A stretch of DNA of 64,000 nucleotides. It comes from Candidatus Heimdallarchaeum aukensis (GTDB lineage Archaea; Asgardarchaeota; Heimdallarchaeia; Heimdallarchaeales; Heimdallarchaeaceae). Shown piece after piece: positions 78 to 64,000 of the stretch. The stretch covers positions 1,376,001 to 1,440,000 of the forward strand of contig CP084166.1 in the NCBI GenBank assembly GCA_021513695.1. Direction: 5' to 3'. How positions within the stretch are numbered: the stretch's first letter is position 1; every line of letters begins with the position of its first letter. Made by a program: the position numbers and the translations under genes. A model generated the notes under the pieces. The model was given only the letters and a program-made list of their open reading frames with translations. It was not told the origin of the DNA and did not search any database.

Positions 78-893
78 TTGTTATTTGGCTTTTTAACGGC
101 ATTATATAATTACACTTTTGCTATAGGACAAGAAAAAATATTAAACATAGATTTAGAGCAATATAAGATTATTTTTCAAGAATTAAAAGATAACAAATTA
201 TTAGTAGTCATTACAGATTCTCTTATCGACTATGATGATGAAAAGAATCTTATCGAAAAAATCAAACTTAGGTATGAAGTTCTTACTTATGATAAAGATA
301 TAAGCGAAATTGATTCTTTACTTACAGTAGAAGAAGGAATAATTCCTTTAGAACTTATAGCTGAAATAAGAAGTAAGGGGACTATGTACGCGAAGCAAGA
401 AGAAAAAAGCAAAGCAGAAATCCAAGCAGAGATAGATATTCCAAAAATAAAATCAGAAAAATTCTTTTTCCATATCATTTTGAATGAAGGAATTATCGAT
501 TCGGATAAAGAAGTAAATATCAGAAAAACTTTATCTAATTTTTTTCTAGGTTACCGAAAATTGGTTTTATGTATATTTGCGTATAATATTAGAGGAAAAC
601 TTTGTATTTTTTCCTTTGGTAGAAGTTCTCAAGCAGATAATCATAGAGAGTTCAGCACGCACATCATTAACGAAACTTTAGCCAAAGCCGTGAAGAAAGA
701 ATGTAGTATCATAAATCAGATTGAATATGGTGGAAAGAAATTTTGGGCAAATATATTTCTTGATCAGAAGAAACATTCGAGCTATGTTTTTCTCTCAACT
801 TCTAAAAATGAATTAGTAAGTTTAGAAGTTCATATAAAAAGAATATCTACTTTTATTTATAAATTGTTTCAAAAAAAGTTAGTAGATGCTTGA
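78..893 (+). CDS. Hypothetical protein. The open frame continues upstream to the window edge, so the gene is probably 5'-truncated by the window. The first in-frame start inside the window is TTG at 78.
   Basis: A 271-aa ORF. The same frame stays open from position 3 to 77 (..AIHILDDGINVHSEQLHSISNIDNV..). I recognise no motif. Confidence 0.4.
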   Translation: MLFGFLTALYNYTFAIGQEKILNIDLEQYKIIFQELKDNKLLVVITDSLIDYDDEKNLIEKIKLRYEVLTYDKDISEIDSLLTVEEGIIPLELIAEIRSKGTMYAKQEEKSKAEIQAEIDIPKIKSEKFFFHIILNEGIIDSDKEVNIRKTLSNFFLGYRKLVLCIFAYNIRGKLCIFSFGRSSQADNHREFSTHIINETLAKAVKKECSIINQIEYGGKKFWANIFLDQKKHSSYVFLSTSKNELVSLEVHIKRISTFIYKLFQKKLVDA

Positions 894-52022: not shown

Positions 52023-53642
52023 CTAAACATGAGTATTTAGGAACTGGATTCCACCAACGGGCGAATATTTAGAATATTGACGTTTATAAGCTCTTAAGTA
52101 ATCTGATAAGCCAGTGATACTTGCTAGACAAAACCAAGGATAACTTACTTCTTGCCAAGTTTTTTTACTGGTATAGATTCCCCACTGCCAAGATTTTAAC
52201 AATGATACTTTTGAAGTGGGAGAATCATCTACTTGCTTTATTTTTTCTAACTTTTCAAGAATAAACGCTCTAAGACTTTTTGCATTTTCAAAAAGTTTAT
52301 CTTTTTCATTTTTCTTTTTTGCTTTAGAAATTTGCCCCAGAAGTTTAAATAATTCTGGTGTGATTAAGCTATATTCCTTCAATTCTGGAGAATTACTCAT
52401 TTCTTCTATCCAATTGGAATTGTAAACCATTCTAGTATATTTTAATAATACGGGAAATTGAACACCAAGCTTTCTAACTGCAGGAATGACTTGAGCATTA
52501 TAATTTATCTCCCCGGGCCCAGATACTCTCAGATACACGGGCATAACAGATTGAAGTGTTGCTTGATTCGTATCTAACCTTGCAGCCAAATTTCTCGCAT
52601 AAGGTTTTAAATTTATTTTCTCTTTGTCAATATCAAAACTTATTTCTTGACCGTCAATTTTACACTTGCCTGAAAAAATTAGAGAATCTTCTTCTTCTTT
52701 GCAAGACAAAACAACCCTATGTCCATTTTCACACTCATAGAAAAAGGGTGAATAATCTTTTTCTTTTTTTGGAGTAGTAGGACGTAAACCGAGAGAAAAA
52801 AGTTTGTTAGAAGCTTTATTGAATTCTTCAATATATTCATCTCTTCTTTTAAGAATAGGTTTATATCCTTTTACAAGTAGTTCTCTGATTTCAGGATGAG
52901 AAGTTGGAAATAATACAAGCCCCCAATCGTTGATGATATTTGCTTGGATTCCATAAATTAAAGCAGCCCAATCACCAAAAGAAAAAGAAGAACGATAAGT
53001 TTCTCTCATGAATGTAAGTATATGTTCTACCCTCTCAAGGAAAAGATTTTGCTTTTCTTTGGGTAAAAGAGATCGAAACTCGAGAAATATGTTCTTTATA
53101 ACCTTTAAGTTCTCATCTAACCAATCAAAATTTCTCATTGAAATTGCAAAAGAAGCAATATTTTCTTGAATGCTAATTAAAGAAATAGGTTTAGTAAAGG
53201 AAGTTTGGGCATTTGGTATGTGAATTGTTGTGATTTCAGGCTGAACCACATCATGAGTATTAACTAAAAAAACAGGTGATAATTTACGCCCATACTCTTT
53301 ACTTAATTCTGAGAGTGTAACAGTAGCCGCAATTTTATTACCAATTAGACTTACTCCCCCAAAAATCGTTGCTTGTTGACCTGCTAAAACAACGCCATTG
53401 TTAATATTATGAATATTGGATCTAACTCTATCTGTAAGTAGACCCAACTTTTCATGATATGATAATAATATTTTCTTCAAAGATTCAACAGTATTTGTTT
53501 CAATATATACTTCTGGAAGTTTACTTACTTTTTCCAGAGCTTCATGAAAAGTTTTAGGAACAAAGTTATAAAAGTACTCTAAATAAGGATGTTTTATATT
53601 TTCCCAGATGTATGAAGAGTATAAATCACCTGCTGTATTCAT
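52023..53642 (-). CDS. bshC: BshC-like protein (putative bacillithiol-pathway cysteine-adding enzyme family, PF10079-like)
   Basis: 539 aa, the same length as B. subtilis BshC. It contains 'GVVLAGQQATIFGGVSLIGNKIAA' (the GQQ motif) and 'LRVSGPGEINYNAQV' (the GPGEINY motif). It is convergent with the bshA-like gene. Confidence 0.58.
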   Translation of the reverse strand: MNTAGDLYSSYIWENIKHPYLEYFYNFVPKTFHEALEKVSKLPEVYIETNTVESLKKILLSYHEKLGLLTDRVRSNIHNINNGVVLAGQQATIFGGVSLIGNKIAATVTLSELSKEYGRKLSPVFLVNTHDVVQPEITTIHIPNAQTSFTKPISLISIQENIASFAISMRNFDWLDENLKVIKNIFLEFRSLLPKEKQNLFLERVEHILTFMRETYRSSFSFGDWAALIYGIQANIINDWGLVLFPTSHPEIRELLVKGYKPILKRRDEYIEEFNKASNKLFSLGLRPTTPKKEKDYSPFFYECENGHRVVLSCKEEEDSLIFSGKCKIDGQEISFDIDKEKINLKPYARNLAARLDTNQATLQSVMPVYLRVSGPGEINYNAQVIPAVRKLGVQFPVLLKYTRMVYNSNWIEEMSNSPELKEYSLITPELFKLLGQISKAKKKNEKDKLFENAKSLRAFILEKLEKIKQVDDSPTSKVSLLKSWQWGIYTSKKTWQEVSYPWFCLASITGLSDYLRAYKRQYSKYSPVGGIQFLNTHV

Positions 53643-53917
53643 TAAAAAGCATTAAATGTAAATAGATAAGAATGTTCTGTTACGACAAAGGATATTTACA
53701 TGCTCTCTTTTTAAATAATAAGAATTCTTCTCTATACTTTTTACAACTCTTTTTATAGATTTTTACTTTTCATTTTATTTGAAATACAGTGTTTTTAATT
53801 TTTGTTAAGATTCGCTTACAAAATCACTTAAGACTCAATAATTATCTATCTTCTTAACATACTTTGTCATGTAAGGATAGTCACTTTTGCAAAAAAGTTT
53901 TAAATGAATAATTCTTA

Positions 53918-54118
53918 ATGTCTCAAGAAGAAAATCGAAGTTTTCTTAAAGGTGAGAAAATGGCAAGAGTAGAATGTCCTAAATGTAAGAGTTTAAACGT
54001 AAAAGAGGTAGAAGACAAGAGCAAAGTGATTGCATACTTTAATCACGTACCAGTCTATAAGAAAAAGCTTGTGTGTAAAGACTGTACATACGAATGGTAT
54101 CCTGATGAGAAAGAATAG
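53918..54118 (+). CDS. Small zinc-ribbon protein
   Basis: 66 aa with 'CPKCKSLNV ... CKDCTYEW' (CxxC..CxxC). Confidence 0.35.
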   Translation: MSQEENRSFLKGEKMARVECPKCKSLNVKEVEDKSKVIAYFNHVPVYKKKLVCKDCTYEWYPDEKE

Positions 54119-54171
54119 AGAACTCTACCTTTAAAACCTTTTTTTATAATTTTCAATGGATAAAATTATAT

Positions 54172-54894
54172 TTATAGTCCTTTTGATAGTCTATTTATTA
54201 AAAATTCGTTAAATCCATTTTCTTTCATTTTCTCTTGTGTAGTTTGTATATCATACTCTAATCTAACAAGTTCATAGTCAAAATTCAATGTTTCTTCATC
54301 AATATTAAAAACCATAAAAGAAGCGCGAGGATCGCCATCTCTTGGTTGACCAACTGAACCAGGGTTAAAAAGATGTTTTCGTCCAACAACAATATGTAAG
54401 GGTTTATGTGTATGTCCCAAAAATAGAAAATCTATCTCTGTAAAATCATTAGAAATTTCAAAAAAAACAGTATAAGTCCATGAAGGAAGATCGGGACTGA
54501 CATAATCTTTTAAGGGACTTCGTGGAGAACCATGCACAAACATTGCATTTTCTCCACTTCTACTAAAAGGGAATATGGAATAAAATGGAAGTGAACCTAA
54601 CTTCTTTTTTTCATAATCACTTAATACATCTCTAGTCCAAAAGAAAGATTCTTTTGGAATTTCATTGAAATGTGCGTATTCATTCTTGTAAACAGCATAA
54701 TCCCAATTGCCTATAATCTGAATGTTAGCCTTTTTTTCAACTAAGTTTAAGCATTCTTTAGGATTAGGACCATATCCTACTATATCACCTAATGAGATAA
54801 TGATATCCGGAGATAAATCTTCAATATAATCTAGTACTACAGTTAGTGCTTCTAGATTACTATGAATATCTGAAATTATTGCGTAAGTTTTCAT
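54172..54894 (-). CDS. Calcineurin-like metallophosphoesterase (YfcE/MJ0936-type)
   Basis: 240 aa. Motifs 'AIISDIHSN', 'SLGDIVGYGP', 'GNWD' and 'GHTHKP' correspond to D-x-H ... GD ... GNH[DE] ... GH-x-H. Confidence 0.8.
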   Translation of the reverse strand: MKTYAIISDIHSNLEALTVVLDYIEDLSPDIIISLGDIVGYGPNPKECLNLVEKKANIQIIGNWDYAVYKNEYAHFNEIPKESFFWTRDVLSDYEKKKLGSLPFYSIFPFSRSGENAMFVHGSPRSPLKDYVSPDLPSWTYTVFFEISNDFTEIDFLFLGHTHKPLHIVVGRKHLFNPGSVGQPRDGDPRASFMVFNIDEETLNFDYELVRLEYDIQTTQEKMKENGFNEFLINRLSKGL

Positions 54895-54997
54895 TAGTTG
54901 ACACTTATAATTGGAAAAATGGTATTCAATATTTAAAAATTTTTAAGGTACAATTAAACAAATAAAAAAGAATAAAAGGAACAAAGTTTTCAAAAGG

Positions 54998-57430
54998 TTG
55001 AATAATATGGCATTCGATGATTTAATATCCTACTTTTGGTCTTATGTTACATCAGACACCAAAATTATCTTAGGTCTTTTTATCGCGTTAATTGGGCTTA
55101 TTTTTTTAATTTCAGAGGTTTATACAAAACTAAAACATGACACAACTAGCGAAAACATGGTATTATCCGCAATTGTGCTAATATTTGGTTTAATTTTATT
55201 TTTCCTTCAAGATTGGTTAATAGCAATAGCATTTAGTTTCTTCATTTTAGCAATTTATCAAACATGGCAATTAAGAGAATCTCCTGTATGGAGAGAATTA
55301 ATGATCACTTCAGTAGCTACTTATTTTGTATTTTTAGTAGGGACAGTTGCTGACAAAGTTTACGAAATTGTTAAAGGAGAAGAAACAGAGATATTTACTG
55401 GTTGGGCTTACAATTTAATGATTTATGTTTTCCTTATTATGGCTTTAATTTTCTTCGGGAAAAAGTTCATTTTAGTAACAAGGTTTATGTCTCCACAAAT
55501 ATTGTATCTAACACTGTTTGCATTTGCCTATCTCGCGTTATGGACAGTTGGTAAATTTATTCCAAATTTTGACAATCTCACTTTAAATTATTTACCTATA
55601 AATCCTGAGATTTCAAAAAGAATTATTTTTCTTTCTTTTGGACCTTATGAAATAATAATCATTTTATCATTTTTCTTATATTTTATTTCAGGTTGGCTAC
55701 TTGACTTATTATTAGGAATAAAACGTACAGATGATGAAAGATTAAGGAAACTAGTCTATGAAGTTAAAGAAAAATTAGGGATTAAAAAGCAAATAAAGAT
55801 CGGAACAGTGAAAGCACCTATTCTCAACGCAATGGCTTATGGTCCTTTTTTTGATCAAAGAGTAGCCTTTATTTCTAATGATTTGAGTGAATTTAGCGAC
55901 GATGATATCAGAGGAATAGTCGCACATGAATTAGCCCATAACAAGAGAGCACATGTTGTTTGGCTACAAGTAATTTCTTCAATGGAGATGATAATAAAGA
56001 AGGCATTCTTGCTTCCTGCAACAACACTAGATTATGCTGTAGTAAAAGAAAATATTCCTTTCATCCAATATTTCTTTCTTAGTTATGGAATTATTGCTTT
56101 TTTGATGATATTTGTTAGAATCATGGAAGGAGATGCAGATAGGAAAACAAAGGAAATTGGATATGGAATAGAACTAGCTCAAGCACTATACAAGTTAGAA
56201 GGATTTTATCAAGGAATAGCTGGAGATTTCGGATTAAATGTGCAACTTCTAACAGGAAAAGAATTTACAGAATCAGAGAAACTTCGTTTTAGAGGAGAAG
56301 CAGCTATCTCTCTGTATACTCAATTATATAAACCAAGTAGATGGGCGATGTTCTCAAATATTTTCATGTCTCACCCAAGAACATCATTCAGAATTGTAGC
56401 AGCTATTGATGATAGCCTATCCCCAGTAAAAGGTGCATTATTACCCTATTGGTTAATTTTACCTAATTTCATAAGAAAAAAAGCTGTAAAGGACCTAACA
56501 AAGAAGAGAGACACATTTGATGAATTAATATCAAGCAGATTTAGAGAATACTATGGGAGTGAAGGTGTCAAGCAATTCTTGGAAATAACCCATGTAAATG
56601 AATTATATCAAACTTATCTAGGTAAAAATGTTGTTGCGTTCGATAAGACAGAAAATACAATTATTTCTGGGAAAGCAGAAGAATTAATAATTAAAGAATC
56701 GATTTGCCGTCCTTTACAACTACTCATTATTACAGAAGAAGGAGAGCGACCAATATATGTAACCGATTACGTCATTAATGAAGCTGAAATAGGTAAAAAA
56801 TATATCCTAAAAAATGGAAAAATGGGAGAACTAAAATCCTATATCGTTAAAGAAAAAAGCAACAGACCTATCTTCATTCTTGTTGATCACAGAGAAAAGG
56901 AAGTAAAAAGTTATTCAACAGGAAAATCGCTTGATTATTTACTTTCTAAAGTTAATCAACAATTATTCATTTACAAAGATGGAATTGATCAGATTATCAA
57001 GTTATCAAATATTAAAGTTGCTGAAACTTACGATGAAACAATATTTGATTTTGAGGAAACAAAAGGAGAACACTTTACTGTAAAAGGAAAAGAGCTTATC
57101 ATTGAATTTCCTCCAGTTCTATTAAGGATTAGAGGTAAAAACAAAGAATTGCGCTATCAACTATTAGAAGGATTAAAAGGTATGTCAGTCATTTTATACA
57201 CAAAAGAAGAGATAGAAGTAGGAATAGCTTGCAAGATTAAAGATATTGAAGAAGATAAATTAACTTATGAGACAAGAGAAGGAGAGAATAAAGTACAAAT
57301 AAGTAAAATAGACTATGTTACTGTGTATGCAGACAAACCAAAACTGTTCCTGAAAAAGCACTTAAGCGCAATTGATAGATTTCTTATCTGGTGGGAAAAT
57401 AAACATAATGATAAATACATTTTCCCCTAA
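54998..57430 (+). CDS. Membrane zinc metallopeptidase (M48/M56-like HExxH) with a large C-terminal soluble domain
   Basis: 810 aa. About 8 TM helices surround 'GIVAHELAHNKRAHVVW' (HExxH). A C-terminal region of about 350 aa is of unknown function. Confidence 0.58.
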   Translation: MNNMAFDDLISYFWSYVTSDTKIILGLFIALIGLIFLISEVYTKLKHDTTSENMVLSAIVLIFGLILFFLQDWLIAIAFSFFILAIYQTWQLRESPVWRELMITSVATYFVFLVGTVADKVYEIVKGEETEIFTGWAYNLMIYVFLIMALIFFGKKFILVTRFMSPQILYLTLFAFAYLALWTVGKFIPNFDNLTLNYLPINPEISKRIIFLSFGPYEIIIILSFFLYFISGWLLDLLLGIKRTDDERLRKLVYEVKEKLGIKKQIKIGTVKAPILNAMAYGPFFDQRVAFISNDLSEFSDDDIRGIVAHELAHNKRAHVVWLQVISSMEMIIKKAFLLPATTLDYAVVKENIPFIQYFFLSYGIIAFLMIFVRIMEGDADRKTKEIGYGIELAQALYKLEGFYQGIAGDFGLNVQLLTGKEFTESEKLRFRGEAAISLYTQLYKPSRWAMFSNIFMSHPRTSFRIVAAIDDSLSPVKGALLPYWLILPNFIRKKAVKDLTKKRDTFDELISSRFREYYGSEGVKQFLEITHVNELYQTYLGKNVVAFDKTENTIISGKAEELIIKESICRPLQLLIITEEGERPIYVTDYVINEAEIGKKYILKNGKMGELKSYIVKEKSNRPIFILVDHREKEVKSYSTGKSLDYLLSKVNQQLFIYKDGIDQIIKLSNIKVAETYDETIFDFEETKGEHFTVKGKELIIEFPPVLLRIRGKNKELRYQLLEGLKGMSVILYTKEEIEVGIACKIKDIEEDKLTYETREGENKVQISKIDYVTVYADKPKLFLKKHLSAIDRFLIWWENKHNDKYIFP

Positions 57431-57538
57431 TTTATTTGCTTTTTTCAACTTATAATTTTCTTCTTTTTTGTCGATAGATATTATTGCGATATTATTTCAA
57501 TAATTCTTAATAATATAAATAAAGCTTAAAACATTTAA

Positions 57539-57898
57539 TTGAGACCTATGGAAGCAAAGCAAATACTAAGAGAACAGTTTAGTGAAAGGAAACTTAATGT
57601 AAGCGAAAATGTTCGAATAAGAATGGGAAGAAAGGACTATAGAGTAGACTTCTATTTGAAAGATTATAAAATAGGTATTATTACTTTAGACTGGAATAGA
57701 ACTATTCCTGTGAGTAAGATTTTACAATTGGAAAGAGTCAAACATGCATTAAAGTTGAAAAAACTAATTTTAGTATGCAATTCTATCAGTGAAAATGCAA
57801 AGGAATTTTTGACATATAGAAATCAGATCAATATACAAGTTGTTCATTCTTCAGAGATAGTAAAATTTGAAAGAAAGATTGATGATTTTGTCAGTTAG
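57539..57898 (+). CDS. Hypothetical small protein
   Basis: 119-aa ORF, convergent with the MBL gene. I could not assign its fold. Confidence 0.35.
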   Translation: MRPMEAKQILREQFSERKLNVSENVRIRMGRKDYRVDFYLKDYKIGIITLDWNRTIPVSKILQLERVKHALKLKKLILVCNSISENAKEFLTYRNQINIQVVHSSEIVKFERKIDDFVS

Positions 57899-58930
57899 TT
57901 ATATATAGAAGTCTAAAGTTCTTTGCTTCGTTAGTGGAATCGCATCAAATCCTCTTCTTTTTAATTCAGAAGCAAAATTAAGAGAAGAACCATAGATTGT
58001 ATACACTTTCCGAGGATTACATCGTTCTACAATTTCAATTAGTTCATTAAAATCGGCATGGTCACTAATAACTATCCCATGGTCGATTGACATTTGAAAC
58101 TTATATCTAGGAAAATTACACCAACCAGAAAAGGCAAATAATTTAACATTATATTTTGACCTCAAATGTTTGAGAAAGCCGTTTCTTCCACTCATTAAAG
58201 GAGAAAACAAAATCCAAGGTTTTTCGTTTGCTAATAGATTATTCTTTTTCATATATTCATAGGAATTATAATTAAAACATATATTCGGGTTAACTGACTC
58301 TAGTATTTTCTGGATTTTTAGATTCGAATCATGTAAAATCAAATTATCAGAAAGATTAGAGAATTTTTCATATAATATTTGGGCTTTACCATAAGGATAA
58401 CCCATCAGCACTACAGGAATATTTTTTGATAAATAGTCCTCAATGAGATCTTTCGCTCTTTTAATCTCTTCTTCAAAAGGTGGAAATTGGTACTTAGGTT
58501 CTCCAAAGGTAGATTCAATGATTAACGTATCACAGTCTTTGGGTTGAAAAGGTTCAATTAATTTTCCTTTTCTTTGAATAGAAACATCACCAGTGTAAAT
58601 TATCCTTTTATCATTAGAATCGATTTGTAAAGCTGTAGAACCAACGGTATGTCCACTTGGAATTTGAGTAAATTTCACCTCTTCAAATTCTAAAAATCTA
58701 ACGAAATTGTTTGCCTTTAACCTTGGAAAAAAGTGTTTTAATAAAGATTCAGTGTAAGAACTACTAAGAATAACAGTATTTTCTAAAACAGATCTAGTTG
58801 TATGATCAGAGTGAGCGTGACTTACAAAAAGTAGATCTGTCGTATTTTTTCTTGTGACATCACAAGTAATAGACCAAGCTCTATCAGTTATTTGAATACC
58901 AGAATTCTTTATAATCTTCATTTCAACCAA
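57899..58930 (-). CDS. Metallo-beta-lactamase-fold hydrolase, beta-CASP-like (SNM1/CPSF/ligase-associated exonuclease type)
   Basis: 343 aa. Motifs are 'FVSHAHSDHT' (HxHxDH), 'PSGHTVGS', 'IYTGDVS', 'IIESTFGE' and the C-terminal 'ISDHADFNE'. Confidence 0.68.
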   Translation of the reverse strand: MVEMKIIKNSGIQITDRAWSITCDVTRKNTTDLLFVSHAHSDHTTRSVLENTVILSSSYTESLLKHFFPRLKANNFVRFLEFEEVKFTQIPSGHTVGSTALQIDSNDKRIIYTGDVSIQRKGKLIEPFQPKDCDTLIIESTFGEPKYQFPPFEEEIKRAKDLIEDYLSKNIPVVLMGYPYGKAQILYEKFSNLSDNLILHDSNLKIQKILESVNPNICFNYNSYEYMKKNNLLANEKPWILFSPLMSGRNGFLKHLRSKYNVKLFAFSGWCNFPRYKFQMSIDHGIVISDHADFNELIEIVERCNPRKVYTIYGSSLNFASELKRRGFDAIPLTKQRTLDFYI

Positions 58931-58967
58931 TTAAACGTAAGAATTCTTAAGAAAAAAAAAGAAAATA

Positions 58968-59618
58968 TTATTCAAGTGGTATAGAAACTACCATTATGTC
59001 TTTTTCTTCTACTTCATCTTTGACTATTTTCTTTATGACATCTTTTGCTAATTCTTCCATCTCTTCAATTGTTAAATCTTCTTTGTACTTTTCTTTAAGA
59101 ATGGAAATTGCTTCTGTATCTCCTTCTCCTATTGCTTTTGCTTTTACAGAGATTACTCCGCCACCAGGGTCTACATAATACAGAGATGATCCTGTATCAT
59201 CTACTCCTCCTATCAACAATCCTACTCCAAAAGGCCTTACTCCTCCTTGTTGAGTGTAAAGTTGGCAGTAATCTCCAATTTTTGTAGATAATCCCTTAAT
59301 ATCTGTTGGGAGATCATAGGTCATTCTAAATATTTGAGCTTCTAGTCTTGCTCTTGAAATTAGTACTCTCCCATCTGCAGCTACTCCTGCAAAGGTTGCA
59401 TATACTTTTTCATCTATTTTATGTACTTTGGCATCTGGTTCGTTTAAATCAACGACTCTTAATAAGCCAGCTAGTACAACACCATTTTTACTCTTTATAC
59501 CTACTGCTATGCTTCCTCGTCTTACGGATTCTCTTGCATATTCTACTTGTATCAATCGTCCTTCAGGACTATACATGATTGAAGTTCTATCATATCCCAT
59601 TGATTGTGGACCTAACAT
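58968..59618 (-). CDS. psmA: Proteasome alpha subunit
   Basis: 216 aa. The N-terminal alpha-type signature is 'YDRTSIMYSPEGRLIQVEYA'. Confidence 0.88.
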   Translation of the reverse strand: MLGPQSMGYDRTSIMYSPEGRLIQVEYARESVRRGSIAVGIKSKNGVVLAGLLRVVDLNEPDAKVHKIDEKVYATFAGVAADGRVLISRARLEAQIFRMTYDLPTDIKGLSTKIGDYCQLYTQQGGVRPFGVGLLIGGVDDTGSSLYYVDPGGGVISVKAKAIGEGDTEAISILKEKYKEDLTIEEMEELAKDVIKKIVKDEVEEKDIMVVSIPLE

Positions 59619-59619
59619 T

Positions 59620-60306
59620 TTATAACTCCTCCAATATTTTCTTTATCTCTTCTTCAGTTAACCAACGGATTCCATCTTTGTTTACAACCAATGCATCCAT
59701 ACCATTTCCAGTTGCTGTATCTCTGCTAATTGAAGTTGATAGTGCTCTTAGTCCTAGTTTAATTGCTTCATCTTCTGTAAGACCTTCTTTCCAGAAAGCT
59801 TCTAATACACCATAAGAGAAGAGCGAACCTGAACCTGTTGAAGCATAGTCTTCATCAATTATTGCACCAGAAGCATCCAAATTATAAACGTGAGGACCAT
59901 ATTTATCTAGACCACATACTAACATTGCAACATAGAACGGCATGTAAGATCTAAACTGTTCATATAGTATAGAAGCAAGAAGATTTCCTGCCATTTTTGT
60001 TGTTGGGGGATAACCTCTGTTTAGTTCATATAGATTTAAGTTAGCTTTAGTAAGGTTAACTAAATATTGGGCATCAGCTACTAAACCAGCGATCGTTGCA
60101 ACAGTATAATCATTTAATTGGTGGAGCTTTTTAGCTCTCTTCGAAGCAACGAAGGTTCCTGCAGAAGCTCGTCTATCAGTAGCAACAACAACACCATCTT
60201 TAAATCTAAGAGCAACAGTAGTTGTCCCTTTCATTGGATTTTCAAATGGATTTTGTTGTCCATAATTATTCATCATATTCATTTTCAAACCTCTATTTTT
60301 TTTCAC
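59620..60306 (-). CDS. psmB: Proteasome beta subunit (with propeptide)
   Basis: 228 aa. The propeptide is followed by 'G|TTTVALRFKDGVVVATDRRAS' with the catalytic Thr. Its stop lies 1 nt from the psmA start. Confidence 0.88.
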   Translation of the reverse strand: MKKNRGLKMNMMNNYGQQNPFENPMKGTTTVALRFKDGVVVATDRRASAGTFVASKRAKKLHQLNDYTVATIAGLVADAQYLVNLTKANLNLYELNRGYPPTTKMAGNLLASILYEQFRSYMPFYVAMLVCGLDKYGPHVYNLDASGAIIDEDYASTGSGSLFSYGVLEAFWKEGLTEDEAIKLGLRALSTSISRDTATGNGMDALVVNKDGIRWLTEEEIKKILEEL

Positions 60307-60458
60307 TAATAATGTGATTGTTTCTAAATATCAATTATCTTTTTCCTTTATAATGACTCACTTTTTACAGATTTTGAGTAAGTAAAATGAAGAATTATAA
60401 GAAATACTCACAATTCGTATATAAAGATATATTTATTATATTTAATAACATTTGAATA

Positions 60459-61154
60459 ATGAATGCAATGAATCTGCATAGAGATGATTTTGAGAAATTC
60501 CAATATAGTGAGCCTAACTTAGGAAACTTACCATATGACTTTTTTTACTCAAATGAATATAATTACATTACACTCCCTGAAGTGCAAGTTCTCTTTGCTT
60601 TATCAGATTCAAGTGTATCATATACATTCTCCGGACTAAGAAAGAAAACTCAATTACATCAATATAAAATCTCTAAATCTTTAAAAAGGTTACAAGAGCG
60701 AGACTTAATTGATAAGGAACAAGATGGAACTTATTCCTTAACAACAAAGGGAGAAGAATTTTCTCGAAAACTAGTCAAGGAACTATTAAAAAGAAAAAAT
60801 ATTTCTTATGAAAAATATGACGATTTTCAAACTCAAAGGGTAAAATTATTTACAAAAAGAAGTTTAGACCAACATTATATTAAAAATAAGCTTTATGGAC
60901 GTTGGTTTGGTGACTTCAGGTTTTTATACGCTAAAGAAGATGGAAAAAGTTTGAAACTTTGTTGGGAAGATACAGAAAATTGGCAAATAACTTTAGAGAA
61001 CACTTCGAATAACCAGTTGTACATCCAATTTAATCACAGAGATTATGAAAAAACGAAAATTGACAACTTCACTAACTGGCTATCAAAAGAGTTACTTACA
61101 GAAGTTGATATTCCATCTTATTCAATAGATAAAGAGTCAGAAGTCTACAATTAA
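60459..61154 (+). CDS. Hypothetical protein with a winged-helix (MarR/ArsR-like) DNA-binding segment
   Basis: 231 aa. 'LSGLRKKTQLHQYKISKSLKRLQERDLIDKEQDGTYSLTTKG' looks like a wHTH recognition helix plus wing. Confidence 0.42.
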   Translation: MNAMNLHRDDFEKFQYSEPNLGNLPYDFFYSNEYNYITLPEVQVLFALSDSSVSYTFSGLRKKTQLHQYKISKSLKRLQERDLIDKEQDGTYSLTTKGEEFSRKLVKELLKRKNISYEKYDDFQTQRVKLFTKRSLDQHYIKNKLYGRWFGDFRFLYAKEDGKSLKLCWEDTENWQITLENTSNNQLYIQFNHRDYEKTKIDNFTNWLSKELLTEVDIPSYSIDKESEVYN

Positions 61155-61184
61155 CTTAAAAAATCATAATAAACCTTTTTTGAT

Positions 61185-62930
61185 TTAATTTTCAAAAACC
61201 GAATGCATGTCTGAAATATCGTCTTCTGGTGTTTCTGCAGTGGGGTGTAGAAACACTTCTCCATCTAATATCGTAAAGGGAATCCTCCTTTTATCGATCC
61301 ATGGTGCAATTTCTCTAAATTCTTTAAAGAGATCATTACTTACAATCATTGCTGTTTCCTCTTCTGCTATTCTAAGAATAAATTTATCTCCGTCAACTCT
61401 CGCAGGTAGCATCTTTATAGCTCCTTCTTTCACTAGTTGATCCAACCTTCTTTGATTATCAATTTGATACCTAAGTGCAGCATCTGCAACCGTAATTATT
61501 TTCTTAAAGTTTGACCGACTAAGTTTATTGATCATTGCTTCAATGTTAGCTAACTTCGGATGACCAGCAGCATCTTTTTCTTCCCAAGCAACATTGCTTC
61601 CATCAACTATGACTACATCATAAGGATAAGTTGTTTCTGGAAATATGCGTTCTTGCTCACCTTTAGTTATCTTTACTAATCCTTTAATGATGTCTCTTGA
61701 GAAATAACCTATTCCTAGAAGTACTGTTATTAAAAGAATGATAATTGTAATATTTTTATCAAATGGATTTAACGGTTCGTCATTAGATATAATCTGAATA
61801 TGAAATACACCACTAAAATAAAAACTTGTAAACCAATAAATATCAGGTTGAATTTCCCAAGCTATTTGAATCGAAAGGGTGATCGTGGTATTGCCAGCTT
61901 CTATGGGTTTATCCTTTAAGATTATATGATGCCCTGAAAAGCTTGGAGATATAGCAAATATTTCTCCATTAACCTCTGAAAAAGCTATTAGAGGACAAGT
62001 GATTTCATGTTCAATATATACAACATCATCCTCAAAATTTGCTATGTTATAAGTGATTGAATAGTCTTTATTTAGTGAAGCATTCACGGAAAAATGAACA
62101 TTACTAATTGAAATATTAGGATAACAGATTATATACAAAGGCTCACTTAATACAATAACAGGATTATCTGGATCATCTAGATTTGTAAATGAAACCTGAT
62201 ATGAATGTTTTTGGTATAAAGGCTCATTTGTAAAAAACCTTATTGTTCCTTTGTAGCTTTCTCCACTATTTAACATTAGATTCAAATATGGAAGATAGAT
62301 AATGGGACTAGCTTCTGTCCCTTGCCGATTAACCAAGGCTGAGATAGTTACATTAGTTACAGCTGTACCCCCAACATTTACCAACTGGAAGTCTACTTCA
62401 GTAGTTGAATTACGTTTGAGGATTATTTTATTATTAACAAATGTCATTTCTATTTGCCCACTAGGGAGAACCTCGAGGGTAAAAATAGCAGTTTGATAAG
62501 TGGTTATGACATTTGTTCCATTAACAAAACTTTCGACTGAATAGTTTCCTGCTGGCTGGCTGTAAAAATCTTTTTTGTTGATTTTTACTACATAATCAGT
62601 TGAAGAATTACTAACTATATGCTTGTTTTCAATGATGTTTGCAGTTTCATAAGAGATGTTATAAAAAATAGTAGCATCACCATCAATAGGACTACCATTT
62701 AACCAAGACAAATGGAAAAATAAAATTAAATCATTTATTCCGCGTTTAATTACAGAAGAATTCAAAGATAAAGTAAAATTCACTTCTGATTTCTCTGAAA
62801 AATTATAATAATTCGAAACTGGTTCTTGTGAAACAATTACTTCAGAATTTGACATTGGAGAACTTATTAAGAAACTTGAGAACATGAAGAATGTGAGGAT
62901 AGATAGCGTAATTACTAGCTTTTTTTTCAT
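61185..62930 (-). CDS. Single-pass membrane protein: signal peptide, large extracellular domain, TM helix and a cytoplasmic Zc3h12a-type NYN ribonuclease domain
   Basis: 581 aa. The N-terminus is 'LVITLSILTFFMFSSFLISS' and the TM is 'ITIIILLITVLLGIGYF'. The C-terminus 'VVIVDGSNVAWEE...IITVADAALR...AMIVSNDLF' matches the NYN/Zc3h12a motifs (vviDGsNva ... ivSND). Confidence 0.65.
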   Translation of the reverse strand: MKKKLVITLSILTFFMFSSFLISSPMSNSEVIVSQEPVSNYYNFSEKSEVNFTLSLNSSVIKRGINDLILFFHLSWLNGSPIDGDATIFYNISYETANIIENKHIVSNSSTDYVVKINKKDFYSQPAGNYSVESFVNGTNVITTYQTAIFTLEVLPSGQIEMTFVNNKIILKRNSTTEVDFQLVNVGGTAVTNVTISALVNRQGTEASPIIYLPYLNLMLNSGESYKGTIRFFTNEPLYQKHSYQVSFTNLDDPDNPVIVLSEPLYIICYPNISISNVHFSVNASLNKDYSITYNIANFEDDVVYIEHEITCPLIAFSEVNGEIFAISPSFSGHHIILKDKPIEAGNTTITLSIQIAWEIQPDIYWFTSFYFSGVFHIQIISNDEPLNPFDKNITIIILLITVLLGIGYFSRDIIKGLVKITKGEQERIFPETTYPYDVVIVDGSNVAWEEKDAAGHPKLANIEAMINKLSRSNFKKIITVADAALRYQIDNQRRLDQLVKEGAIKMLPARVDGDKFILRIAEEETAMIVSNDLFKEFREIAPWIDKRRIPFTILDGEVFLHPTAETPEDDISDMHSVFEN

Positions 62931-63005
62931 TTAATGACCTCCAATGTTATTAGTGAAGTAATAATTCCATTATAGTATATTCTCTTAATAAATCTTTATC
63001 TTAAA

Positions 63006-63704
63006 GGGTGTGCGGGAATACCCCTGATTCTGTTCGGAAGTCATTTACATGAAACTTCTTAGCAACATTCATCTATGCGCTTTACCCGACTTAGAAAGTC
63101 CTATTTAAGCTTGCACCACGATGTATGATCGTTTCATCGCTCCCTCTTTACTCCTCAATAACTTCATAGGACACCCTATGTGTCATATCATTGTCAACGT
63201 AAAGAGGACGTGTCGTTTCTATTTCAGGGACCACGTTCTCACGTGATGGGTTTGCACCCATATCGCTTGTTAGGTGTCAGGAGGTTCCTCAGGTTTAACC
63301 CGAAAGTTGCTCTCCCGCTCACCCTAAGAGTACTATGTTTTTATCAAAAATAAAGATAGCTGTCACAGATTGCTGACATTCTCTCACGCTAAAGCGTGGG
63401 AGGTTCTTGATTCTACAGAGAGAAGCAAAGGGCGTGCCACCGCCCCGTTAATGACTCCCGCAGGGAAACGTTCACCCTGAGCGAGACCTATATTTAAACA
63501 ACCTACAGCGTCTCTATGGGGCTCTAAGCCACAATCAAGACATTTGAATAATCTTTTTCTTTTGAATACGTGCGTAGAACGACAACGGGGGCAAATAGAG
63601 GAACTGTGTGCTTCTATAACTTCTTTTACGCTTATACCGTATTCTTCTGCCTTTGCTTTGATTCTCGTAACGAGATAATTATGACTCCAAAAATTGTGTA
63701 CCAT
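63006..63704 (-). mobile_element. Remnant of an IS200/IS605-family element: tnpB 3' fragment plus a GC-rich downstream (right-end / possible omega-RNA) region
   Basis: An abrupt GC-rich block of about 700 bp (about 50% GC by eye) lies in about 30% GC surroundings. Hairpins occur at the tnpB stop, e.g. ctctcacgc-taaa-gcgtgggag at 63381..63402 and tgtca-cagattgc-tgaca at 63361..63378. Confidence 0.4.
63384..63704 (-). pseudogene. tnpB: Truncated TnpB (IS200/IS605 OrfB) gene: only the C-terminal RuvC-III / zinc-ribbon part is present
   Basis: 106-aa ORF. 'RIKAKAEEYGISVKEVIEAHSSSICPRCRSTHVFKRKRLFKCLDCGLEPHRDAVGCLNIGL' fits the TnpB C-terminal pattern (..TSqtC..CG...R.f.C..CG...dRD.NAa.NI). Stops occur within 8 codons upstream of the Met, and the AT-rich 5' flank does not code. 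Confidence 0.6.
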
Positions 63705-64000
63705 AGAATTGGTTTTTTTTTCTCTTTAAATTATTTTTTCTAATTCTTGTTATATTCTTTTTTATTACAGTTTTATATTTAACTTAAGCGTTTTTAATTC
63801 TTACATAATTTATCTCAACCCTGAAGGGTATGAGCTTTTTTGCGTATAAAATAGCAAATATATTTTGAAAATGGAACAAAAATATTAAATCTTAAGTCGA
63901 TACTTTACAACAAAAGACATTAAATATCGAATGATTTATTTAGGTAAGGAAAATTCAATGTTTGAAGAGTGAAAAAGGGCCAGTAGTCTAGCTTGGATAA

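Follow-up and report, generated by a model that had tools for sequence, protein, structure and literature searches.

INTRODUCTION

The closest described counterparts of the locus considered here are the PATEs of haloarchaea (Haloquadratum walsbyi), IS605-type derivatives that arose by core deletion and some of which, such as HqIRS71, keep the C-terminal part of tnpB (PMC3119063); PATE-like elements often code for an omega-RNA, whose use then depends on TnpB acting in trans (PMC10055086). A comparable element lies in the Asgard archaeon Candidatus Heimdallarchaeum aukensis, near the 3' end of the 64,000-nucleotide stretch analysed (GenBank assembly GCA_021513695.1, contig CP084166.1, positions 1,376,001 to 1,440,000; hereafter the window, in whose numbering positions are given), where it sits 51 bp upstream of rnpB, the gene for the archaeal RNase P RNA. 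Our preferred reading, to which we assign a probability of roughly 0.87, is that two unrelated structured-RNA loci, rnpB and a 481-bp gutted IS605-type element, have been made neighbours by a transposon insertion.

Like the PATEs, the window element is non-autonomous, carries subterminal hairpins and no inverted terminal repeats, is flanked by no target duplication, and originates from internal deletion. It differs from them in its Asgard host, in a retained open reading frame (ORF) that is still open, in being known as a single copy within the 64-kb window, and in that no direct repeat able to mediate the deletion was identified. Like tnpB-only elements of the ISDra2/ISGst type it has a scaffold that extends into the 3' end of tnpB and terminates with the right end (PMC10055086); the TTAC-type left-side target of such elements is present in its relatives, the window itself having TTGC. 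Its TnpB is gutted, its family has Gly at the canonical RuvC-II Glu, and its scaffold has no Rfam match. The gene next to it conforms to the archaeal RNase P RNA family (RF00373): it matches at full length with a score well over the curated threshold, has a putative promoter block of its own and is syntenic in relatives, the transposon remnant upstream being the sole oddity.

A further point of comparison is offered by the TldR-type regulators, full-length, nuclease-dead proteins derived from TnpB and conserved at a fixed host locus. Here, too, TnpB-derived sequence and a guide-RNA scaffold stand beside a host promoter, but only the last quarter of the protein is left and the nearest relatives lack the insertion. 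Conservation at a fixed locus, as in TldR, does not hold: the orthologous sites are empty in three relatives (L096, L091, L092; L-numbers denote the loci compared), and the other Heimdallarchaeaceae copies lie elsewhere. The paper describing the Heimdallarchaeum genome makes no mention of TnpB, IS200/IS605 or RNase P (PMC8813620). Neither component is new in kind: one is a known RNA gene and the other a PATE-like mini insertion sequence (IS) of a known kind.

THE RNASE P RNA GENE AND ITS PUTATIVE PROMOTER

The part of the locus nearest to the neighbouring protein-coding gene comprises the following features.

63008..63322, minus strand: archaeal RNase P RNA gene rnpB, complete (Rfam RF00373)
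63346..63361, minus strand: putative rnpB promoter block AGCTATCTTTATTTTT, conserved upstream of rnpB
63353..63372, minus strand: right-end flank of the element, CAATCTGTGACAGCTATCTT, native intergenic sequence, directly joined to the left flank where L096 has its empty site

The original prediction had placed the IS605 right end and an omega-RNA scaffold or remnant in 63006..63383, and the region does invite such a reading, being GC-rich and structured and following a truncated tnpB on that gene's strand. Most of it, however, is occupied by a different known noncoding RNA, an outcome that the original prediction had itself named as grounds for refutation: an Rfam scan of 60000..64000, and likewise of the whole window, matched RF00373 at 63008..63322 on the minus strand over the full length of the model (178.1 bits, the gathering threshold being 84; E 2e-52; positions 1-288 of 288). 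Moreover, rnpB stands at the same position in relatives free of the transposon, and homology to all TnpB-family loci stops at 63373. We consequently attach almost no probability to a right end within 63006..63383; its match and its position identify 63008..63322 as the RNase P RNA gene native to the host, neither an omega-RNA nor a transposon right end. Besides RF00373, no Rfam match at E <= 1 was returned in 60000..64000 except for a chance-level microRNA, and the scaffold described below matches no Rfam family.

Orthologues of rnpB occupy the syntenic position in L091, L092 and L094 (162-173 bits) and, by nhmmer, in L096 and L099-L102. A block, AGCTAnnTTTATnT, is kept before the gene in L091, L092 and L096, that is, in all species aligned, and includes a TATA-like TTTATTTTT at about -32..-24 relative to the rnpB 5' end. 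Its location, taken with what is generally known of archaeal TATA boxes, makes this block the probable rnpB promoter. It lies 12-27 nt beyond the right end of the element, and the insertion therefore left it intact.

ENDS AND BOUNDARIES OF THE MINI ELEMENT

The element and its parts, all read on the minus strand, are as follows.

63373..63853, minus strand: internally deleted IS605-family (tnpB-only, IS1341-type) mini element, 481 bp, delimited by the L096 empty site and by the limits of homology
63373..63402, minus strand: right end, hairpin CCTCCCACGC-TTTA-GCGTGAGAG followed by the conserved terminus AATGTCAG
63373..63490, minus strand: omega-RNA-like scaffold, four helices (63487-63453, 63445-63430, 63429-63406, 63402-63383), from covariation
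63384..63704, minus strand: TnpB remnant ORF, 106 aa, PF07282, about TnpB residues 301-412
63705..63750, minus strand: frameshifted upstream tnpB stub (..ITRIRKNNLKRKK / TNSM), from two-frame translation
63751..63807, minus strand: AT-rich leader, weakly aligned to the left-end-proximal leader of L024
63808..63853, minus strand: left end, 10 nt and then the conserved motif GCAAAAAAGCTCATACCCTTCAGGGTTGAGATAAAT
63854..63857, minus strand: left-end flank, degenerate target motif TTGC (TTAC in relatives)

The right end is set by the relatives. In blastn comparison of the minus strand with all loci, homology ends sharply at 63370-63373 in about 20 of them, and the terminus ...GAGAGAATGTCAG / GRGAGKATGTCAG gives way to unrelated flanks in more than 35 loci; the last 150 nt or so are 80-86% identical to elements of distant lineages, as against about 70% further upstream. 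The end so defined, 63373, falls 11 nt past the stop codon. The left end emerged from a separate 37-54-nt match, at 63790..63846, to a segment that in relatives precedes the TNB domain by 950-1000 nt. Its motif GCAAGAAAGCTCATACCCTTCAGGGTTGAGATGAAT / GCTCWTAYCCTTYAGGGKTGAGA has a counterpart of 85-96% identity, 40-100 nt ahead of intact tnpB, in L001, L006, L010, L017, L020, L024, L030 and L040, and also occurs in L086. The sequence TTAC stands 8-10 nt before the GCAAG of this motif in eight relatives and in L086. The original prediction had made no claim about a left end, which lies outside the 63006..63704 that it covered.

Intact copies within one genome can be aligned end to end over about 1,365 bp, the alignment beginning just after TTAC and closing with the terminus GTCAG; the window element retains both ends in 481 bp, too short for the full protein. 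The left-end and right-end motifs occur once each in the window, where none is expected by chance. Both end hairpins fold as single-stranded DNA (left 63813..63835, within 63808..63843; right 63383..63402; z = -2.9 for the right-end DNA fold), and both subterminal hairpins are conserved with compensatory changes in relatives.

THE INSERTION SITE

The loci syntenic with the window were reached through orthologues of the neighbouring 581-aa NYN-domain protein, and the closest of them preserves the site without its occupant. L096 is about 97% identical to the window on both sides of a single gap that removes exactly 63373..63853: the empty site reads ..CAAAATTTATTTAA|CAATCTGTAACAGC.. where the window reads ..CAAAATATATTTGC[481 bp]CAATCTGTGACAGC.., or, around the junction, ..TATTTAA|CAATCTG.. 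against ..TATTTGC[element]CAATCTG.., with no target duplication. The expected element-free junction would be ..ATATATTTGC|CAATCTGTGAC.., and the expected circle junction ..ATGTCAG|TATTTTATACGC... Both flanks, TTGC in the window and TTAA in the empty site, are one change away from TTAC; if TTAC were required, either (63854..63857; L096 about 888..893) would block TnpA cleavage or TnpB recognition.

The sites of L091 and L092 are likewise without the element, and the tRNA-to-rnpB spacers reflect this.

L092: spacer 125 nt; NYN identity to the window 57%
L091: spacer 160 nt; NYN identity to the window 62%
L096: spacer 174 nt; NYN identity to the window 90%
H. aukensis (window): spacer 654 nt

Could the truncation instead be a product of assembly, an intact tnpB being present in the true genome and the repeat collapsed or mis-joined? 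IS copies are classic collapse sites, and the published genome is rich in transposase repeats (PMC8813620). An independent Logan assembly of SRR15988954 (L090), however, is 100% identical to the window over 53384..64000 (10,617 nt, 0 mismatches), hence across the whole locus, and extends past the window end; the same mini architecture also appears in two assemblies of another Heimdallarchaeaceae lineage (L086, L087). The truncation is therefore no artefact of one assembly, and an assembly error here is extremely improbable.

A different IS605-type mini element occupies the orthologous TTAC|CAATC site upstream of rnpB in the more distant L094 (2887..3323), reading TTAC|TAGCC..GAAAGCCCTGTCCTTGAGGGCGGGGATGAA ... 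CTGCCTTTAGGTATTGGTAGTTCATCGACA|CAATCATGAACAGCT, with no detectable TnpB coding. We rejected identity with the window element: the end architecture is alike but the interior cannot be aligned. The shared site could be a hot spot, a result of homing or a trace of old occupancy, and may be a favoured target. A fixed association of the window element with rnpB was likewise rejected, as family copies stand beside unrelated genes and the sites of the nearest relatives are empty.

THE TNPB REMNANT

The 106-aa ORF matches the entire profile of Pfam PF07282 (Cas12f1-like TNB; E 1.2e-16), covers the TNB zinc ribbon and the RuvC-III HRDAVG motif, and is annotated at NCBI as 'transposase'. In tblastn comparison with the intact 412-aa TnpB of L006 it aligned at 73% identity to residues 301-412 and to no other part. 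It is thus the zinc-ribbon/RuvC-III end of TnpB, as originally proposed, and the stops that had been noted a few codons upstream of its Met are borne out by an in-frame stop 9 codons before it. This Met is a conserved internal residue and no true start: relatives read ..NSM(I/V)HNFWS where the window has MVHNFWS (alignment A1). Neither tblastn nor motif searches found N-terminal TnpB sequence anywhere in the 64-kb window, so that the predicted absence of the 5' two-thirds of tnpB holds as well.

Upstream of the Met, a second frame, ..ITRIRKNNLKRKK, corresponds to ..LKGIRTNTSKGKK / GDLKGIRTNTSKGKKINTM in relatives, the frame breaking in a run of nine A (A9) at 63713..63721. DNA homology to L007, L010, L021 and L024 begins at 63747, and the AT-rich 63751..63807 beyond it is probably the former tnpB 5' untranslated region. 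An intact tnpB, with RuvC-I, II and III and the zinc ribbon, is accordingly absent: residues of about 301-412 are in frame, preceded by a frameshifted stub from about residue 288. With only this C-terminal part in frame and no N-terminal part, the element is a derivative and not an intact member of IS200/IS605. The stub protein would be incapable of acting as a nuclease alone, because RuvC-I and the RNA-binding WED/REC parts are missing.

The TnpB family to which the remnant belongs has Gly at the position of the RuvC-II catalytic Glu of Cas12f/TnpB (IVVGDL against IQMEDL of 8j12; L006 2119..3321). About 45 residues downstream of this Gly stands a nearly invariant Glu (V.E..TSS), which is E31 of the window ORF. 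The family may be one of the TnpBs with a 'rearranged catalytic site', or it may be inactive.

AN OMEGA-RNA-LIKE SCAFFOLD

The scaffold lies within the 3' half of the ORF, in the last 40 or so tnpB codons, and ends at the right end, 63373; it may begin further 5', up to about 63553. RNAalifold on the last 200 nt of 19 elements (alignment A2) gave a consensus in which 13 of the 36 pairs carry compensatory double changes. Standard pairs fill 93.8% of cells, against 36-52% when partners are slid by 1-3 columns, and changes on both sides of a pair were counted in 64 cells where 21 were expected. The covariation score of 0.319, compared with 0.186 in shuffles, was reached in none of 500 shuffles. 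Helix 7, the right-end hairpin, has compensatory changes at six of its eight pairs, and the two most covarying helices, 63429..63406 and 63402..63383, underlie the poorly conserved C-terminal tail of the protein.

Codon-level change points the same way. In comparisons of the window with L086, L089 and L006, the proportion of synonymous change (pS) is 0.70-0.92 over codons 1-50 and 0.33-0.57 from codon 51 to the end, whereas the nonsynonymous proportion (pN) stays at about 0.12-0.17 and 0.11-0.16, respectively. This drop in synonymous change is what a second, RNA-level constraint would produce and supports the presence of one. The minimum free energy fold of the window sequence alone gives the same four helices. 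In the window the scaffold has 5 unpaired cells, within the family range of 0-8, and three of the five are private or rare.

That an omega-RNA or right-end element might be retained after loss of tnpB, and mobilised in trans, was part of the original prediction; the idea fits 63373..~63490, not the 63006..63383 in which it had been located. By analogy with the IS605/TnpB mechanism (PMC10055086), 63353..63372 is where the guide of such an omega-RNA would be read from, its would-be target sequence being TTAC followed by CAATCTGTGACAGCTATC. In an RNA fold that includes the would-be guide (63355..63378, minus strand), the UGUCAG terminus and the flank CUGUGACA can pair over 5 bp, probably by chance.

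BASE COMPOSITION

The locus had drawn attention as an island of about 50% GC, taken as a sign of recent foreign insertion. The island itself is real, with a lower value: 63006..63704 has 43.8% GC, that is, about 44%, compared with a window mean of 31.0% (standard deviation 2.5%, 699-bp windows), and is the highest such stretch in the 64 kb. It consists of two separate GC-rich blocks, rnpB and the omega-RNA-like scaffold, parted by a 50-nt spacer.

63008..63322: 45.4% GC (rnpB)
63323..63372: 30% GC (spacer)
63373..63553: 49.2% GC (omega-RNA scaffold block)
63554..63704: 37.7% GC
63705..63806: 16.7% GC

GC content alone is no marker of foreign DNA here, because both blocks are structured-RNA sequence in an AT-rich genome and rnpB is native, syntenic at eight related loci; the 3' half of the TnpB ORF is GC-rich because the derivative retains a nearly intact omega-RNA scaffold. 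In AT-rich archaeal genomes, a GC-rich island marks structured RNA more often than foreign DNA.

THE TNPB FAMILY AND ITS DELETED DERIVATIVES

A scan of species-representative genomes returned 80 loci, from Asgard archaea, Bathyarchaeia, Archaeoglobi, Alkanophaga and others, many of them with intact tnpB ORFs of 400-440 aa. A family of mini-proteins, suggested by a first search in which the 106-aa query gave only short fragments, was rejected: most short matches whose contigs were read are frameshifted, truncated or split calls of full-length tnpB. Searching all loci with intact TnpB (tblastn) and with the end motifs, by contrast, brought out many internal-deletion derivatives that retain the right end and the scaffold. 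L086/L087, two assemblies from the other Heimdallarchaeaceae lineage, join a left end to residues 294-402 beside a peptidase gene; L089 joins a left end to residues 199-402; L003 joins residues 12-57 to 292-405; L008 begins at residue 217; and further derivatives begin at residues 305-335. Loss of the last 78 or so codons was found in none of the derivatives examined.

A short form similar to that of the window thus exists at another locus in L086/L087, while the window element itself is present or absent between close relatives. A shared deletion ancestor with the L086 mini element was tested for; the AT-rich interiors of the two, from left end to stub, allow no reliable alignment. The H. aukensis genome (3.08 Mb) also encodes P0028, a longer member of this TnpB family: it has 353 aa, both Pfam domains and 72% identity to the stub. 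In the metagenome ERZ26872901, two tnpB copies (L001 3207..4315 and L002 1..518) are both split at the NSMHNFWS site, where in each the OrfB_IS605 and TNB frames share an identical 43-nt overlap; transposition could have spread an inherited frameshift, recoding being a further possibility.

ORIGIN AND PRESENT STATE OF THE ELEMENT

The preferred reading builds on the identity of rnpB, on the identity, boundaries and orientation of the element, on the empty site and on the conserved RNA structure. On this reading, a derivative of a tnpB-only (IS1341-type) IS200/IS605 element inserted into the spacer that separates tRNA-Arg(GCG) from rnpB, on the 3' side of a TTAC-like site, leaving the probable rnpB promoter untouched. 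If it followed the established IS200/IS605 mechanism, it would have arrived as single-stranded DNA 3' of TTAC. Internal deletion removed TnpB residues of about 1-287, with the left-end hairpin, the leader, the last 125 or so codons (the first 15 or so frameshifted) and the right end left over. Movement would need a Y1 TnpA elsewhere, since the element carries no transposase, and any RNA produced would have its guide copied from the flank CAATCTGTGACAGC.. and would depend on TnpB in trans.

Several points weigh against this account. The left flank is TTGC and not TTAC. The deletion junction is placed no closer than within 63751..63807. In the 64-kb window the element is a single copy, tblastn and motif searches having found no other, and both mobilisation of the mini form and deletion in place are compatible with this. 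No TnpA (Y1 transposase) lies inside the element, although no search for TnpA was made. The omega-RNA is a conserved structure rather than a demonstrated transcript. The covariation of the terminal hairpin could equally reflect a single-stranded DNA hairpin read by TnpA. Finally, the folding energy of the single sequence is unremarkable (z = -1.3); thermodynamic support from one sequence being weak, the case for the scaffold rests on covariation.

Within these bounds, what is the element now? This copy is probably immobilised or decaying, given its TTGC flank, its frameshift and its three private or rare helix mismatches; together with the substitutions EPHRD for EAHRD and HSSS for HTSS, the flank and the frameshift suggest early decay. 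Pressed further, the same evidence would make the element an inert relic, a dead and decaying IS fragment that makes or uses no omega-RNA and is beyond mobilisation, its features merely uneroded since a recent insertion. Such a fragment differs from the preferred reading solely in present-day activity. The degenerate flank, the frameshifted stub, the three helix mismatches absent from or rare in relatives and unusual substitutions at conserved positions, EPHRD and HSSS among them, would all follow, and flanks about 97% identical to the empty-site relative imply that little time has passed. Yet the scaffold is no more damaged than in copies beside intact tnpB (5 unpaired, family 0-8), both end hairpins are intact, and a TnpB of the same family is present in the genome. 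We give complete inertness slightly less than an even chance.

At the other extreme, the element might be a maintained module: a mini IS that has preserved the promoter and leader of tnpB, an open TNB-domain stub and a functional omega-RNA, and that is propagated and held in place in trans by the genome's full-length TnpB and a TnpA. The TTAC|CAATC just upstream of the probable rnpB promoter would then be a favoured site of landing or homing in Heimdallarchaeia. The landing-site component is proposed because two lineages each carry a different IS605-type mini element there, and in the strongest version of this reading the stub protein itself would be under selection, with pN far below pS in two similarly truncated copies. 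We think this very unlikely.

Alternatively, the host itself may have kept the TNB stub, the omega-RNA or both, for instance in an RNA-guided or RNA-binding role near the rnpB promoter. The ORF is open for 106 codons; the comparison with L086 gives, over codons 1-50, a pN of 0.12 against a much higher pS of 0.9; the break points of four derivatives lie near residues 289-301; and a different mini element sits at the same site in L094. However, the element is found neither in L096, the closest relative, nor in L091 or L092, the L086 and L088 copies lie in unrelated contexts, and deletion end points elsewhere span residues 199 to 335. A low pN/pS is also expected if each stub was recently cut from a long-selected full-length gene. 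The stub moreover retains neither RuvC-I nor any of the RNA-binding WED/REC parts, and no target-adjacent motif (TAM) stands beside the would-be target at the occupied site. Exaptation is thus a very unlikely outcome.

NEIGHBOURING GENES

63977..64000, plus strand: tRNA-Arg(GCG), 5' part, divergent from rnpB (ARAGORN on L090 5881-5958 = window 63977..64054)

The rnpB gene lies just upstream of the NYN gene in all loci checked, with tRNA-Arg(GCG) divergently upstream of rnpB in most; the order tRNA-Arg(GCG), rnpB, NYN protein is kept in L091, L092, L094, L096 and L100-L102. In the window the tRNA gene begins 24 nt before the end, so that a tRNA scan of the window missed it. It is found as tRNA-Arg(GCG) also in L091, L092, L096, L100, L101 and L102, and its orthologue in L094, 97 nt long with an odd anticodon call, suggests an intron. 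The tRNA-Arg/rnpB spacers of L100 (1225..1885), L102 (315..875) and L101 (210..2078) measure 561-1869 nt and are AT-rich; they show no TnpB similarity and look like small opposite-strand genes rather than transposons.

Directly downstream of rnpB (61185..62930, minus strand) is the 581-aa protein with an NYN/Zc3h12a RNase domain (Pfam E 9e-16), which has an N-terminal signal- or membrane-like segment, a C-terminal NYN domain and a weak match to the protein-only RNase P PRORP. Its orthologues are at L091 5001-6758, L092 5001-6776, L094 3817-5574 and L096 1336-3078. Across Heimdallarchaeia the order runs tRNA-Arg(GCG), rnpB, NYN protein, a protein of about 232 aa, proteasome beta/alpha; in the window, too, a proteasome beta subunit and other archaeal genes are nearby. 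An RNase-fold protein fixed beside the RNase P RNA gene may merit attention.

IMPLICATIONS

The value of the locus lies mainly in the correction of annotation and in a well-delimited Asgard example. As regards the former, the 'transposase' call covers only the tail of a gutted IS, and the adjoining essential rnpB could be mistaken for part of the transposon. As regards the latter, the locus offers a clean, boundary-resolved Asgard IS605-type element reduced to its ends and a guide-RNA scaffold, with the empty site preserved in a sister lineage. For the family as a whole, the right end and the omega-RNA region survive in the deleted forms examined, which come from several archaeal phyla; this retention agrees with the idea that not only the ends but also the guide RNA can serve in trans.

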